From contig OZ253553.1 of the NCBI GenBank assembly GCA_965262715.1, forward strand, positions 2,048,001 through 2,112,000: a stretch of 64,000 nucleotides of DNA, given 5' to 3'. The DNA comes from Bdellovibrionales bacterium (GTDB lineage: Bacteria > Bdellovibrionota > Bdellovibrionia > Bdellovibrionales > JAUICD01). Shown here in pieces: positions 2,563 through 62,698 of the stretch. Position 1 is the first letter of the stretch; each line of letters opens with the position of its first letter. A model generated the notes under the pieces. The model saw only the letters and a program-made list of their open reading frames with translations. It searched no databases and had not been told where the DNA came from. The position numbers and the translations under genes were made by a program.

Positions 2563-2835
2563 TTTCCTTAACATTGTGTCAAAAAACGAAGGGTATCTCC
2601 CTCCAAAAAATGGTCAGGCTTTCTAGGTAATGACCTATTTGCTGACGGTGTAAACCGTCAGGGTCATTGCCAGAAAGTCGCCAAAAGATTTTCCTTAACA
2701 TGTTGTAAGAAAATGAGGAGTATCTCCCCTACTCAAAATAAACGGATTTTTGAGACAGTCAGCATTTTCTGAAGACGTGAGTCTTCAGGCTGATTGTCCA
2801 AAAATGGTCAGAGACCAGTTTATTTTGAGTGAAAC
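2563..2835 (+). repeat. Family A structured repeat, two tandem copies (2563-2686, 2690-2835) abutting the tRNA CCA end
   Basis: TTTCCTTAACA...CTCCC(C)T...long hairpin...TTTTGAGTGAAAC; the first copy lacks the 3' tail. Confidence 0.9.
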
Positions 2836-2911
2836 TGGTGGAGACGAACAGGATTGAACTGTTGACCTCTACAATGCCATTGTAGCGCTCTCCCAACTGA
2901 GCTACGCCCCC
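2836..2911 (-). tRNA. tRNA-Ala (GGC)
   Basis: Reverse complement GGGGGCGTAGCTCAGTTGGGAGAGCGCTACAATGGCATTGTAGAGGTCAACAGTTCAATCCTGTTCGTCTCCACCA: 76 nt, cloverleaf, G3-U70, encoded CCA. Confidence 0.97.
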
Positions 2912-3065
2912 AAAATATTTTTATAGTAGCTTAGCATATCTTTTCAAATAAAATCAAATGATCATAACACATCATGAATATTTAAACACAGCCTTTAACT
3001 TTCTAATAGTTAAAATCAGCAGATTGAAGATTTAATTATTACGTACACATTTTTTAAAATAGCTT

Positions 3066-4181
3066 CTAATGAACATCACCCACATACAATGCTCTAGGCC
3101 GGTAAATACGATTATTTGCATATTGTTCTAAAATATGTGCTAACCATCCACTTGTACGAGAAGATGCAAAAATGGGAGTGTATAAATCAAGGGGAATTCC
3201 CATAGAATAATAAACTGATGCAGAATAAAAATCTACATTAGGTAAAAGGCCTTTTTGTTCACGAACAATATTTTCAATAGTTTCAGACATTTCAAACCAA
3301 GAAGGTTCATTATTATCAGATACTTTTTTTGATAATGATTTACTCATTTGTTTTAAAATTTTCGCTCTAGGATCTCCATGTTTATAAACACGGTGACCAA
3401 ATCCCATAATTTTCTTTTTATGAGCTAAGGCATCTTCTATCCACTCTTTTGCTTTTTGAACAGATCCAATAGATTTTAACATTCTCATTACCTGCTCATT
3501 AGCTCCTCCATGTAAAGGACCTTTAAGAGTTCCAATAGCAGTCACTACAGCAGAATAAACATCGCTAAGAGATGATGTGGTGACCCTTGCTGCAAAACTC
3601 GAGCAATTTAACTCGTGATCTGCATGCAAAATTAAACAAGTATTAAGTATGCGCACAAATTCTTCATTAGGTTCTTCACCTTTTAAACAATAAAGAAAAT
3701 TCCAAGCAAGAGATTGATCTGGATGAGCAGATATAATATCTTGTCCATTTCGAATACGTTCAAAAGCAGCCACTAACAAGCCTACCTTAGCAACTAAAGC
3801 ATAAGACTTATCCAACAGTTGATCTTCATCTTTATCATCAGCATTTTGATCTGCTAAAGCCAACAAAGACACAGCACTTCTAAGCCATGCCATAGGATGC
3901 ACATTTTTATGGGGTAATTGTTTTAACAGTTTTATAAGATCAGCATCAATGTTTAAATGAGATGCTATTTTCTGTTTTAGTTGCTCATTTTCAGCTTGTG
4001 AAGGTAATTTATTAAACCATAAAAGATAAATAATTTCTTCAAAACAATATTTCTCAGCTAGATCCTCTATTTTATAACCTCTATAAGTGAGGGTAGCATC
4101 TATAATACAAGAAATACGAGTCTTGCAGGCAATAACACCCTCTAATCCTTTATCAATAGCCTTATCATAATAGTCTGTCAT
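3066..4181 (-). CDS. Citrate synthase (short type II / 2-methylcitrate synthase-like)
   Basis: GLEGV, LHADHELNCS, KGPLHGGANE, MGFGHRVYK.GDPR and PNVDFYS motifs. Confidence 0.95.
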   Translation of the reverse strand: MTDYYDKAIDKGLEGVIACKTRISCIIDATLTYRGYKIEDLAEKYCFEEIIYLLWFNKLPSQAENEQLKQKIASHLNIDADLIKLLKQLPHKNVHPMAWLRSAVSLLALADQNADDKDEDQLLDKSYALVAKVGLLVAAFERIRNGQDIISAHPDQSLAWNFLYCLKGEEPNEEFVRILNTCLILHADHELNCSSFAARVTTSSLSDVYSAVVTAIGTLKGPLHGGANEQVMRMLKSIGSVQKAKEWIEDALAHKKKIMGFGHRVYKHGDPRAKILKQMSKSLSKKVSDNNEPSWFEMSETIENIVREQKGLLPNVDFYSASVYYSMGIPLDLYTPIFASSRTSGWLAHILEQYANNRIYRPRALYVGDVH

Positions 4182-4310
4182 CTTAAACCCTTTTCACCTG
4201 ATAATCTCCTATTTATTCAATATCTATTATAATATAAGCAACCTTAAGTTGTCATTTATTATTTTGCAAGGCAGCTATTTGATTTAGAGAAAAGCTTATA
4301 AGTCTTAAGT

Positions 4311-61279: not shown

Positions 61280-61432
61280 AGAGTTATGGAAGGTTTGGAA
61301 TAGACGTGAGGCCAGTGCCTCAAGAGACAAGATTTTTATAAAATATTTATCCTATAATAGGTTCTTAAAATAACAGAAATATAAGGCACTTCGGGGTGCC
61401 TGCTGCCTATGGAAGATGCCTGCCATAACTCT
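61280..61432 (+). repeat. Family C palindromic element
   Basis: AGAGTTATGG.AGG / CCTGCCATAACTCT arms; AGGCCAGTGCCTCA; TTATCCTATAAT core. Confidence 0.85.
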
Positions 61433-61528
61433 GAATCATTACATTAAGGTAAGTTCAAATAATAGACTCAGCATTTTTGAGATAAACTTCAAGATAACCA
61501 GATCATAATAATAAAGATTTTTTGGACA

Positions 61529-62446
61529 TCATTGTACGTTAGTAACTACTTGAAAACCAAAATTAGGAGCCTCATTTAAAGAACCATCAATAAAACGAGT
61601 GATTTTTGTCCAAATTTTTCTATTACCTGTATCCCTAACAACATAAATACGAGGTATATTGAATTGCAATACACTTCTCGTTCCGAAACCAGTATTTGTC
61701 TGCAGTCTTGATGCAAAATCTATTGCAGGAGAAAGTCTTACAATATCTCCAACCTGAACAGATCTGCCTCCATCGGGTATAATATTCATTTCAAGTATAG
61801 ATTCGTTATCGTCTATTTCTACAACTCTTGCTATGGCTAGCGCTGAAAGAGGACTATAACTAACATCACTACAAGTGTTGTAATAATCATCTCTAGGGTA
61901 AATATGAAAAACATCACCCTCCTGAATATGATCAGAGCGACCCAAAGGAACTAGGACTCTATCACCTCGCACAACATTTACCTCACTCCTCGGTTGTCGC
62001 GGCTCAAACCTCAAAGTATCTCTAAGCCTTACATAACCATCTCTTACCGCCTCTTGAACTATATCTGATATATCTCTGCTGACAAAGTTTCTAGATTCAC
62101 CAAGACCTATAATATCAAGTGTTACTGAACTTCCAGGCCGTCGCACACTAAATACTAACTCTAATCTTTCTAATCCTATACGGTTTTCTGGAATATCTAT
62201 TAGATATCCTTCAGGACCATCGTCAGAGTCAAATATATTACGAATTTGGTGATCAAAAGGACGTACATCTACAATAAGATCAAAACACACATCACTATCA
62301 CCAGTATTCAATGCTGATATAGTCTCACTAGAATTTGTATCCTGAGCTAAGCTATCCGAAACAAAAGTGATTAATAAAAAATACATCATAAAAAAGGTTT
62401 TTAGATAATGGCTCATTGTTCCCCCTTGATCTGCACGTAATTTCAA
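61529..62446 (-). CDS. Secreted protein, paralog 2 (start probably ATG 62416, MSHYLKTFF)
   Basis: GDRVLVPLGRSDHIQEGDVFHIY; clearly homologous to 60062-61039. Confidence 0.78.
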   Translation of the reverse strand: MKLRADQGGTMSHYLKTFFMMYFLLITFVSDSLAQDTNSSETISALNTGDSDVCFDLIVDVRPFDHQIRNIFDSDDGPEGYLIDIPENRIGLERLELVFSVRRPGSSVTLDIIGLGESRNFVSRDISDIVQEAVRDGYVRLRDTLRFEPRQPRSEVNVVRGDRVLVPLGRSDHIQEGDVFHIYPRDDYYNTCSDVSYSPLSALAIARVVEIDDNESILEMNIIPDGGRSVQVGDIVRLSPAIDFASRLQTNTGFGTRSVLQFNIPRIYVVRDTGNRKIWTKITRFIDGSLNEAPNFGFQVVTNVQ

Positions 62447-62656
62447 ATCGCAAGTGCAACACTTTTGTGTTTATAGATATTTATTATTTTATTGATGTCT
62501 TTAACTGAAAGGCAACAAAAATATCTCAATCTTGATCAATAATAACCCTAAGCCTTCTAGATGCAACCAAATACAGATACCGGATATTTTGATTCCGAAC
62601 GCAGTTTGCCAGAGTGCCGGTTTGAGCTGGACCTTCAATTTGTTCCTTGGCTTATT

Positions 62657-62698
62657 CCACTAAAATGCATCTCGCCTCTCGTGGTGAGCCTCTGCCCA
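62657..62698 (-). repeat. Family A 3' fragment
   Basis: CACTAAAATGCATCTCGCCTCT matches the 3' ends of the minus-strand copies at 8283 and 26955. Confidence 0.65.

Follow-up and report, generated by a model that had tools for sequence, protein, structure and literature searches.

A likely selfish, gene-less structured repeat of an undescribed family in a Bdellovibrionales bacterium and its relatives

Family A, a repeat with a core unit of 145 nt found in a Bdellovibrionales bacterium, is likely a structured selfish repeat of an undescribed family. The window analysed here, a stretch of 64,000 nt (assembly GCA_965262715.1, contig OZ253553.1, positions 2,048,001 to 2,112,000), contains the repeat in 15 full copies, in one more that bears an internal insertion, and in about ten fragments. 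The reading preferred here, to which we give a probability of about 0.5, is that of an old, lineage-restricted and gene-less repeat, likely selfish, the folded strand of which would be read by a putative trans-acting factor.

A covariance model was made from 15 window copies. Scanned against the window, it gave 29 matches at E<=1, including 15 full copies of at least 130 bits each. Below this class are the copy at 10381-10567, which carries an insert of 36 nt, two large partial ones (2561-2687 and 27428-27585) and weaker fragments. These figures confirm that the repeat is real and agree with a preliminary description of the window, which had counted about 17 near-complete and nine partial copies. 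The 3' motif TTTTAGTGARAC occurs 20 times in the window at one mismatch or fewer, compared with 1.81 expected. In the complete genome (2.94 Mb, hereafter G000) nhmmer produced 471 hits that reduce to 450 non-overlapping copies, 295 of them full; among the fragments 99 consist of the 5' part only and 46 of the 3' part only. As had been proposed, the copies occur in both orientations and are intergenic: every window copy lies between ORFs, and so do 408 of the 450 in the genome, although ORFs fill 78% of it.

At the left of the window a 3'-truncated copy (2561-2687, plus strand, model positions 1-123, 86.5 bits) is fused through AAAAGA to a full copy (2688-2838, plus, 153.1 bits) whose 3' end meets the 3' end of a tRNA-Ala(GGC) at 2836-2911 on the minus strand. 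Two full copies of the same orientation (8280-8430, minus, 166.2 bits; 8456-8606, minus, 159.6 bits) precede the copy at 10381-10567 (plus, 91.5 bits), whose side-hairpin region has received a further hairpin of some 36 nt. Five full plus-strand copies then form a co-oriented array that begins at 11021-11171 (163.1 bits, z -9.61) and continues, 10 nt further on, with a copy of another subfamily (11181-11335, 145.4 bits), a copy with a model score equal to that of the first (11413-11563, 163.1 bits), and the copies at 11573-11719 (131.3 bits) and 11729-11883 (147.1 bits), the last one with its 3' motif duplicated behind it, at 11885-11896. The spacer ahead of the copy at 11413-11563 is a repeat of a different kind, family B. 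A unit of the dimer subfamily comprises a 3'-truncated first monomer (13724-13841, plus, model positions 1-106, a model match) and a full second monomer (13846-14000, plus, 137.7 bits), again with a duplicated 3' motif (14002-14013). A 5' fragment (18745-18820, plus, model positions 1-86, 42.2 bits) lies ahead of a full copy (18886-19035, plus, 164.1 bits) that is convergent with dnaE and ends 4 nt from its stop codon.

The remaining copies are on the minus strand and include two full copies that immediately adjoin each other (26952-27103, 159.6 bits; 27104-27249, 130.7 bits), a partial or divergent one (27428-27585, HMM positions 26-141, 84.8 bits), a weak fragment of which the 5' 41 nt are recognisable (36273-36415, 26.8 bits) and a solitary full copy with a side hairpin expanded by 15 nt (38934-39098, 156.8 bits). 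A second dimer unit consists of a full second monomer (49189-49339, 161.2 bits) and a 3'-truncated first monomer (49351-49447, model positions 1-98, a model match), and is followed by a full copy, also with a side hairpin expanded by 15 nt (49637-49802, 144.4 bits). The last match of the covariance model ends at 49995. The family had been extended to 62698, and a 47-nt 3' remnant made of an expanded side hairpin, the basal 3' strand and the tail can be recognised by eye at 62652-62698 (minus) with no model match.

The fold of family A is a three-way junction (RNAalifold on 15 copies: 41 pairs, 28 of them compensatory). In an alignment of the 146 matches that three genomes supplied, the share of paired cells is 94.0%, compared with 77.3% in shuffles, and double changes occur in 33 of the 41 pairs. 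The covariation score is 0.499 versus 0.205 in shuffles, with none of 500 shuffles as good and slid controls at 0.08 or below, a very strong covariation. A structure-free HMM alignment of 203 non-redundant genome copies, the set used for checking the anatomy of the fold, contains 5162 cells with Watson-Crick pairs, 211 with G·U and 153 with A·C, and across analyses copies are 88-94% paired, with MFE z-scores from -6.4 to -9.6. Compensatory change preserves the fold across subfamilies and three genomes. On the same 203 copies the variants described for the basal stem are borne out, the middle stem covaries, the side hairpin carries its AGA loop in 183, and the T-rich bulge on the 5' strand is present as a 7-nt internal loop. 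The second small hairpin (GARGG..CTCCYT), presented earlier as a fixed feature, is poorly kept.

A strand preference shows in the loops more than in the helices. A GNRA apical loop is found in 116 of the 203 copies on the element strand and in one on the opposite strand, and these loops stay while the stems below them change. In the helices the preference for G·U over A·C is modest, although G-T pairs had been noted on the element strand (1.4-1.8-fold; 211 against 153 in the core); it is lower than in typical functional RNAs, and in hairpin 2 it is reversed (151 A·C, 95 G·U). The strand bias of the loops is real and that of the helices weak, so that strand specificity is partial. Selection on a single-stranded fold, most simply RNA, had been suggested; the pairing far above chance upholds the first part. 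Both strands fold, and the folded form may be RNA or ssDNA.

Template switching between arms, or gene conversion, may also restore complementarity in palindromic DNA with no selection on the fold. In favour of this, the two strands fold almost equally well (z about -6 to -10 on either) and the numbers of G·U and A·C cells are similar in magnitude. It is nevertheless scarcely credible here, because such copying would erase asymmetric features, and the 7-nt T-rich internal loop, a 3-nt junction, the AGA triloop and the GNRA loops persist in most of the 203 copies; moreover, three separate helices and their junction are maintained, and the plus strand is the more stable one in 138-147 of the 203.

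Changes private to single lineages are less frequent per column in stems (0.028) than in unpaired positions (0.048), and 178 of 470 stem changes on private lineages are compensated doubles. This excess, on long private lineages, fits in-place selection on each copy for a host function as well as selection during copying. Family A might be a cis element or RNA family that serves the host (in termination, in transcript-end protection, or as an RNase III or insulator site) and grows by local duplication and recombination, an explanation that is unlikely but has several observations on its side: old copies are still paired, GNRA loops outlast changing stems, array periods are exact (201-431 bp), showing local duplication, copy blocks are closer to gene 3' ends than to 5' ends (median distances of 109 and 223 nt), and both species have a copy on the 3' side of dnaE, in whatever orientation. 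Signals of termination bear on this reading and on the preferred one alike. Between positions 1 and 20000 of the window there are 37 terminator-like sites compared with 9.3±3.0 expected in shuffles; copies account for 23 of the 37, with sites on both strands. Each element carries three such motifs over its two strands, as the side hairpin, which is GC-rich and lies between an A-tract and a T-tract, scores as a terminator on both strands and hairpin 2 does so on the minus strand. Judged by these pattern matches, the copies would serve as transcription stop signals, and two-way action of this kind would lead to copies being tolerated near gene 3' ends.

Several features weigh against a host-serving role. 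The bias in orientation relative to neighbouring genes is weak, with 74 regions in the same and 47 in the opposite direction, and a gene start lies no more than 30 nt from 32 of the 237 blocks. Neighbouring copies are mostly of different subfamilies, so that simple duplication does not account for the arrays. The dimer subfamily, which has a conserved linker and occurs at many loci, the truncations and the copies in a multicopy gene are features that selfish spread typically produces. A 145-nt three-way junction is more than a simple terminator needs, the G·U to A·C ratio is low, and the repeat is absent from two genomes of the same family. Of the 96 multi-copy regions, 81 contain copies of one orientation only. 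On the 3' side of dnaE and in the neighbourhood of tRNA-Ala, copies are present in both sister species at other positions or in other orientations. The presence of both orientations, the co-oriented arrays, the dimer subfamily, the truncation and the differing sites in sister species argue for a mobile repeat and not for one RNA gene family.

The copies of family A are old and show no recent burst. Between a copy and its nearest dispersed neighbour the median difference is 17 of 145 positions, and a neighbour with five or fewer differences exists for only 8 of 317 copies. Within the family-level clade the repeat is carried by G000, G001 (a sister genome, in a single contig, with at least 75 scored matches) and G004, and is absent from G002 and G003, even though G003 and G004 belong to one genus. 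Copies of G004 and G000 are 90-91.5% identical; housekeeping genes of G000 and G001 are 69-73% identical. Comparison of the genomes yielded no empty and filled site at nucleotide resolution and caught no insertion event, and per-bin counts of the two orientations set against cumulative GC skew revealed no consistent bias with respect to the replication strand. The lack of a recent burst, of a caught insertion and of such a bias, like the weak orientation bias relative to neighbouring genes, counts against the preferred reading.

As stated in the preliminary description, no known REP, MITE, attC or CRISPR family fits the repeat, nor does any Rfam family: Rfam 15 gave no match at gathering score in the whole window, and the best sub-threshold score in the five-copy array was 28.2 bits, where the gathering score is 102.3. 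Contrary to what had been reported, there is a terminal inverted repeat, short and imperfect (TTTCCTTAACA versus TTTCACTAAAA, 8 of 11 positions). Together with the many IS copies resident in the genome (IS30-like 27; IS4-like 23, 10 and 4; IS5 15; IS256 14; IS3 10), it would agree with a classical MITE mobilised in trans, its short TIR (TTTCCTTAACA ... TTTTAGTGAAA) serving as the recognition site of a DDE transposase. This possibility is very improbable and has been largely refuted. A fixed-boundary target-site duplication was not found (with 4-mers, no boundary offset gave more than 6 of 98 solitary copies), the best 3-mer score falls in A-runs, and long flanking repeats accompany only 8 of 111 copies. 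A partner IS would have ends starting TTTCCTTAAC, and the ends of the six families read (IS30-, IS4a-, IS5-, IS256-, IS3- and IS4b-like, with IS1595 and IS4c outside the comparison) are unrelated to TTTCCTTAACA. No IS family is enriched beside copies, and the internal fold covaries throughout, which a mechanism based on terminal repeats alone does not require.

No cognate enzyme was found inside the window, in agreement with the first reading. An HUH/RAYT, reverse transcriptase, IS110 or TnpB gene had been suggested as a partner to look for, and none of the first three was found in the repeat-bearing G001. TnpB, searched for in G000 only, gave one hit, inside a 1343-aa ORF; this ORF, with its single PF07282 hit, we take to be Cas12a. 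PF02371 (Transposase_20, IS110) has no match in G000, G001, G003 or G004 in a search that did not extend to PF01548. RVT_1 was counted in G000 (three genes, two group II-type and one retron St85 fusion) and G001 (none), with G004 outside the count, and the single copy near a reverse-transcriptase gene is explained by an adjoining tRNA. For the integron integrase (TIGR02249) no match in G000-G004 exceeds the cut-off of 265 bits, the best reaching 67 bits; G003 and G004 lack any match, and G004 also lacks a tyrosine-recombinase match. Since G001, with its at least 75 scored copies, has no Y1_Tnp, Transposase_20 or RVT_1 hit and no integron integrase above cut-off, models based on REP/RAYT, IS200/IS605, IS110, integrons or reverse transcriptases fail.

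Among known systems, REPINs and REPs mobilised by RAYTs resemble family A in several respects (Bertels & Rainey, PMC3116915, PMC3337134, bioRxiv 10.1101/2021.07.10.451892). They are likewise gene-less, intergenic, hairpin-forming, present in hundreds of copies, old, confined to one lineage and vertically kept, with no target duplication and presumed recognition as a folded single strand. REPs are palindromes of about 20-40 nt arranged as inverted doublets that need a Y1 RAYT gene, present once and lying between REPs, whereas family A is an AT-rich 145-nt three-way junction that stacks directly, and two of its three carrier genomes lack a Y1 gene. A ssDNA element of REPIN/RAYT type or derived from IS200/IS605 (PATE), moved by a Y1 HUH transposase, would be consistent with the lack of duplications and of long terminal repeats, with the dependence on hairpins and with the one Y1 transposase gene of G000, but is exceedingly unlikely. 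Matches to PF01797 (Y1_Tnp) number one in G000, none in G001, G004 and G003, and three in the repeat-free G002; the G000 gene reads as a normal gene of IS200 type that has unrelated end hairpins of its own and lies 1.8 kb from the nearest copy; and neither a replication-strand bias nor inverted stacking is seen. Membership in REP/REPIN or IS200/IS605 is refuted by the Y1_Tnp counts together with these unlike end hairpins.

Integron attC sites share with family A a diverging sequence, a kept single-strand fold and head-to-tail co-oriented units, and hairpin 1 (CCTTAAC..GTTAAR) resembles the attC core (RYYYAAC/GTTRRRY). Unlike attC arrays, most family A units have no gene between them, and no integrase lies above cut-off in the five genomes. 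Other structured intergenic repeats, namely ERIC/IRU, BOX, Correia/NEMIS and the Rickettsia RPEs, are, like family A, 100-170 bp long with stable predicted folds, intergenic positions and a suggested influence on mRNA stability or termination. Correia and ERIC possess long terminal inverted repeats, Correia makes a TA duplication, and RPEs are inserted in frame inside genes. To our knowledge, none of these has been described with a conserved three-way junction, a GNRA loop and co-oriented arrays. Two reviews cover these families (PMC3184786, PMC10969869).

Only one gene family was seen to follow the occurrence of the repeat, PF05635/TIGR02436, located on repeat-armed cassettes, which makes it a candidate partner. 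Its product is known as the "23S rRNA intervening-sequence protein", a small Avd-like four-helix bundle. PF05635 matches number 19 in G000, 14 in G001 and 19 in G004, which carry the repeat, and none in G002 and G003, which do not, a co-occurrence in five of five genomes of the family that are kin and not independent. In G001 a copy lies within about 1 kb of 12 of 12 examined loci, mostly co-oriented and 75-200 nt downstream, behind (GGGATCY)n arms. In G000 a copy lies within 100 nt of 15 of 33 PF05635-type loci compared with 189 of 2240 crude genes (Fisher 3e-8). At least eight loci, on inspection, have the repeat inside the gene, in sense, at codon 64-70, and five of these have one junction sequence in common.

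Open reading frames of this kind are also carried by intervening sequences of 23S rRNA, such as the IVS of Coxiella burnetii with its S23p/PF05635 gene (PMC4990558). The likeness is that PF05635 tracks the repeat and that the cassettes are multicopy and repeat-armed, with the repeat beside or inside them. Family A differs in lacking an ORF, in that its stems are not made of cassette tandem units, and in that no copy lies within a 23S rRNA gene, one being about 100 nt upstream. We know of no mechanism for either the 23S rRNA intervening sequences or family A.

From this linkage it could be proposed that the repeat is a non-autonomous, gene-less satellite of the PF05635 cassettes, the protein binding the junction and recruiting host enzymes to copy or insert it. 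Besides the counts above, such a view is favoured by the G000 copies closest to those of G004, which flank four-helix-bundle genes, and by a conserved unit behind a PF05635 gene in a genome of another family (G021) that ends in about 35 nt resembling both repeat termini. We consider it quite unlikely, however. Only five related genomes are involved, and a small number of composite units gave rise to many of the linked loci; none of 13 G004 loci has a copy within about 1 kb; and the repeat has no match in four genomes of the order with 6-18 matches to PF05635. No catalytic activity is known for the protein, and its known relative Avd partners a reverse transcriptase, which G001 lacks. The arms of the cassettes are 7-8-nt tandem repeats that are not found in the repeat stems and are not enriched beside G000 copies (2 of 295), and linked copies are no nearer to the family consensus than others. 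The same neighbourhood is expected from shared targeting of hairpin-rich DNA.

For the preferred reading, that of an old selfish repeat recognised as a folded strand, the following course may be envisaged. A putative trans-acting factor would recognise the folded single strand of the 145-nt core, and new copies would arise from a single-stranded intermediate (RNA or ssDNA), the plus strand being slightly favoured. Insertion would take place without a fixed target-site duplication and preferentially beside hairpin-forming DNA, chiefly at the 3' end of resident copies. Once settled, the side hairpin with its A- and T-tracts would act as a two-way intrinsic terminator.

A broader proposal is that the repeat and the PF05635 cassettes together represent a new kind of bacterial mobile element, in which a tiny non-enzymatic protein reads the junction and borrows host replication or repair enzymes to copy it. 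We regard it as doubtful and decidedly improbable; if true, a large family of orphan proteins would gain a function and rRNA intervening sequences a mechanism.

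Family A, a gene-less repeat of about 145 nt that folds as a three-way junction, is a real, undescribed and structure-constrained interspersed repeat. Iterated nhmmer of the source genome (G000; a single contig, C1, of 2.94 Mb with a G+C content of ~34%, of which the window covers positions 2048001–2112000), seeded with one family-A copy, yielded 471 matches, of which 326 span at least 120 model positions and 25 lie within the window; after removal of reverse-strand shadows 450 matches were retained, 295 of them full length. On the basis of these ~450 matches of up to ~145 nt, the family is estimated to occupy about 2% of the genome. 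Within the window, R1, the covariance model built from 15 window copies and used for family-A searches, recovers 15 full matches (130–166 bits) together with one internally inserted copy, two large partial copies and weaker fragments. The recurrence of the 3' motif reported in the preliminary description is borne out (20 occurrences in the window vs. 1.8 expected). Its end coordinate, 62698, is that of a 47-nt 3' remnant (62652–62698, minus strand) which falls outside the R1 matches, none of which occurs past window position 49995.

Flank profiles of 292 copies place the core between TTTCCTTAACA and TTTTAGTGAAAC(AG), preceded on the 5' side by a moderately conserved A/G-rich leader. The length distribution peaks at 145 nt and has a second mode at 159–161 nt, attributed to a 15-nt expansion of the side hairpin such as that present in the 165–166-nt copies of the window. 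The side hairpin is expandable: many copies contain a single 14–15-nt unit, GAGAGGCTYGCCTY, and some orphan 3' ends have as many as three in tandem (examples of expansion are window 38934–39098, 49637–49802, and 10381–10567 and G000:C1:718951 and 1349513).

The fold of family A is real. RNAalifold predicted 41 pairs from 15 copies, 28 of them with compensatory changes, and the observation that sequences diverge while pairing is kept holds for 146 R1 matches pooled from G000, its same-genus sister G001 and G004, a member of another genus: 94.0% of cells are paired vs. 77.3% in shuffled alignments, both sides have changed in 33 of the 41 pairs (1099 cells vs. 382), and the covariation score is 0.499 vs. 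0.205, a value reached by none of 500 shuffles, with slid-partner controls scoring 0.08 or less. As this alignment had been fitted to R1, the count was redone on 203 G000 copies sharing no more than 93% identity and aligned with an HMM; the cells of the 29 alifold pairs counted there are Watson-Crick in 5162 cases, G·U in 211, A·C in 153, and of other kinds in 247. Individual base pairs interchange readily: pair 70–103, for instance, is CG in 67 copies, GC in 65, AU in 32, and UA in 15. The structure consists of an A/T-rich basal stem of 11 bp (positions 43–53 with 129–139), a 3-nt junction, a long arm (57–73 with 100–115) bearing a 7-nt T-rich internal loop on its 5' strand and an apical stem-loop, and a GC-rich side hairpin of 5 bp with an AGA loop in 183 of 203 copies. 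The two small 5' hairpins are weak, A·C cells exceeding G·U cells in hairpin 2 (151 vs. 95), and the closing stem formed by 5' TTTCC and 3' GGAAA displays no covariation. Single copies fold with z-scores of −6.4 to −9.6 relative to dinucleotide shuffles, lineage-private changes amount to 0.028 per column in stems, below the 0.048 of the other columns, and of 470 private changes in stems 178 belong to compensated pairs.

One strand is favored, yet both fold well. The strand-specific GNRA loops of the preliminary description stand, as 116 of 203 copies have a GNRA apical loop on the plus (element) strand and 1 would have one on the complementary strand; the helix bias is modest, the ratio of G·U to A·C being 109:62 among lineage-private changes (211:153 in the core count). 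Of the 203 copies, RNA parameters make the plus strand the more stable one in 138 (mean −51.2 vs. −49.1 kcal/mol), and DNA parameters do so in 147. The folded form may be RNA or single-stranded DNA.

Most matches are intergenic (408/450), though 78% of the genome is ORF. Their orientation bears no relation to the replichore and no strong tie to neighboring genes (74 same and 47 opposite in co-directional regions). A single orientation is kept in 81 of the 96 regions with at least two copies, where neighboring copies, spaced 10–16 nt apart, are mostly of differing subfamilies. At many loci the repeat takes a dimer form in which a first monomer cut at ~106–116 is followed by the conserved linker RTAAAYAACAAYRR and a full monomer; this form has itself multiplied across loci. 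Fragments comprise 99 5'-only and 46 3'-only pieces, 3' remnants of 14–30 nt often lie behind full copies, and some arrays have exact periods of 201–431 bp, one of them a 257-bp array.

The copies are old, a copy differing from its nearest dispersed neighbor at a median of 17 of 145 positions. No target duplication of fixed length was found. Long flanking direct repeats (30 nt of a tRNA 3' end, 13–25 nt of a type I-F CRISPR repeat at three loci, and others of 13–51 nt) were considered as long target duplications and discarded, since just 8 of the 111 solitary copies have them. A search for empty sites within G000 returned 146 candidate pairs, and no exact ends could be derived from the seven examples read; in these the copies lie within other repeats (the four-helix-bundle gene described below or a family-C-like repeat) and the sequence is replaced, not simply interrupted. 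Family-A members are also present on contigs from four further studies. Compared with window positions 1–20000 and 33000–52999, those contigs, whose cover of this organism is low, offer no clean empty site, only cross-copy chimeras and array contractions (11077>11699, 8380>8521).

Family A is confined to one Bdellovibrionales clade. When 75–150 candidates per genome were scored with R1, matches were obtained in G000, in G001 (all 75 scored candidates) and in G004 (12), and none in G002 and G003, which belong to the same family-level clade, or in 36 further genomes of the order. Scanning 185,579 species genomes for the pattern gave a list of 80 loci, of which 69 belong to one Bdellovibrionales MAG record; the remaining 11, from other phyla (Elusimicrobium, Bacteroidales, Methylococcaceae, and others), score at most 17.3 bits with R1 and are chance matches. 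Housekeeping genes of G000 and G001 are 69–73% identical and family-A repeats up to 83%. Copies of G004 (L003, a stretch of contig G004:C11, 1500–2190) are 90–91.5% identical to G000 157003–157151 and 2498398–2498539, each of which adjoins four-helix-bundle genes. Set against the ~70% of the G000/G001 housekeeping genes, this identity suggests lateral transfer, or else strong constraint on the repeat. The sites occupied differ from species to species: on the 3' side of dnaE both G000 and G001 have a copy, in opposite relative orientation, and at tRNA-Ala(GGC) the G000 copies lie on the 3' side and five G001 copies on the 5' side.

The searches exclude partners of REP/RAYT type as well as other known ones. 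The enzymes initially proposed as candidates do not supply one: Y1 HUH/RAYT genes (PF01797) number 1 in G000, 0 in G001, 3 in G002, and 0 in both G003 and G004, the single G000 gene reading as IS200-like with hairpins of its own; IS110 (PF02371) occurs once in G002 and in none of G000, G001, G003, and G004; reverse transcriptases (RVT_1) number 3 in G000, 0 in G001, 1 in G002, and 0 in G003, those of G000 being two group II-type enzymes and one retron St85 fusion; and the sole TnpB-like match in G000, the genome searched for it, lies within a 1343-aa ORF that appears on reading to be Cas12a. A copy 440 nt behind the retron-type gene was dismissed as a link, since the adjoining tRNA gene accounts for it. 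In L026 (G000:C1:2649241–2652813) a 590-aa protein fusing a retron St85-family effector to a reverse transcriptase is encoded beside a tRNA gene, and a fragment of the tRNA is duplicated; the locus resembles a small island that has integrated there.

No integron integrase scored above the cut-off in G000–G004. Each of 14 control genomes has ordinary tyrosine recombinases that the integrase model detects; G003 and G004 (1.6-Mb genomes of genus g3) lack even weak matches and may be devoid of XerC/D-type recombinases. Insertion sequences of G000 are IS30-, IS4-, IS5-, IS256-, IS3-, and IS1595-like; no IS family is enriched beside family-A copies, and the six families whose ends were read have termini unlike those of the repeat. 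The PD-(D/E)XK Transposase_31 was rejected because its counts (G000 19, G001 16, G002 0, G003 16, G004 1) do not track the repeat, G003 having 16 genes and no repeat. A 185-nt repeat with the family-A 3' motif was also rejected as the end of an autonomous element, as it has no ORF. Consistent with the initial failure to recognize a known family, an Rfam search returned nothing, and a limited literature search found no described equivalent.

One gene family does track the repeat. PF05635/TIGR02436, a four-helix-bundle family also named "23S rRNA intervening-sequence protein," has 19 matches in G000, 14 in G001, 0 in G002 and G003, and 19 in G004, and thus follows the repeat exactly inside the family-level clade; four other genomes of the order have 6–18 matches and no repeat. 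The G001 gene, intact at 101 aa, is located between (GGGATCY)n arms and behind a hairpin sequestering the ribosome-binding site, and a copy lies within ~1 kb at all 12 of 12 loci, usually co-oriented just behind the downstream arm. In G000 a copy lies within 100 nt at 15 of 33 loci or fragments vs. 189 of 2240 crude genes; at at least eight loci, by reading of the table, the repeat lies in sense orientation at codon 64–70, five of these loci have one common junction sequence, and half-genes often travel with the repeat. Against the link stand the repeat-free genomes of the order that have matches, the common descent of many linked loci, and G004, where 0 of 13 loci are linked. The idea that linked copies are closer to the consensus was not upheld either (median 114.5 vs. 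116.5 bits, p = 0.43), nor were octamer (CCRGAYTG) arrays a general companion of copies (2/295 upstream). The genes are multicopy, encode 99–101 aa, each follow a hairpin in which the ribosome-binding site is paired, and are flanked by arms of 7–8-nt tandem repeats, (GGGATCY)n or (CAATCAGG)n (examples are G000:C1 2560796–2561095, 660279–660578, and 2438229-2522; L184 960–1600 in G001; and L193–L202 in G004).

A terminator role for family A is suggested by patterns of sequence and position. With an A-tract on one side and a T-tract on the other, the side hairpin has a terminator-like score whichever strand is read; hairpin 2 has one on the minus strand. Window positions 1–20000 contain 37 terminator-like sites (9.3 ± 3.0 expected), 23 of them inside copies. 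Family-A blocks lie at a median of 109 nt from gene 3' ends (61/239 within 30 nt) and of 223 nt from gene 5' ends (32/237 within 30 nt), and in co-directional gaps the block is nearer the upstream stop in 80 of 129.

Other repeats and loci adjoin or resemble family A. Family B, of ~80 nt, separates copies in an array (window 10941–11020 and 11333–11412, plus strand), and its hairpin, TTTCACT-TTAAGAG-AGTGAAA, is an inverted pair of the family-A 3' motif. Family C, of ~185 nt (G000:C1:1382264–1382450 and ~10 other loci), ends in the same TTTGAGTGAAACAG motif as family A and has a different, GC-richer body, so that several G000 repeat families have one common 3' terminus. In a type I-F-like CRISPR array (G000:C1:482100–483090; 28-nt repeat, 60-nt period, 14 regular repeats), adjoined by a presumed cas operon, a copy replaces the spacer between the last two repeats; two repeat-element-repeat mini-loci (G000:C1:476744–476921 and 490441–490637) flank the operon, and all three copies run along the presumed direction of array transcription. 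Family-A arrays border both an AbiEii-type toxin gene with an upstream 221-aa ORF lacking a Pfam match (window 11887–13433, minus strand) and a truncated RhuM-family gene (14007–14606, plus strand). The single 23S rRNA gene (G000:C1:1042808–1045839) has a divergent copy ~100 nt upstream (1042572–1042706); the gene is ~107 nt longer than the Rfam model and may therefore hold a small intervening sequence.

Family A behaves like a REPIN/ERIC-type selfish repeat with an inferred copying mechanism, but tests of membership place it in no named family. What is new here is the exclusion of known partners, the age of the copies and a candidate link to four-helix-bundle cassettes. No RAYT, IS200/605, IS110, integron integrase, reverse transcriptase or end-matched IS is available as a partner; one possibility is that folded nucleic acid is copied in these bacteria by an unknown enzyme or host process, the other that selection keeps a very large cis-acting structured family. 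The deep covariation allows the structure to be modeled confidently, so that binding, cleavage and termination experiments are straightforward to design. If true, the four-helix-bundle link would join structured intergenic repeats, the PF05635 orphan family and rRNA intervening sequences, all three of which are poorly understood.
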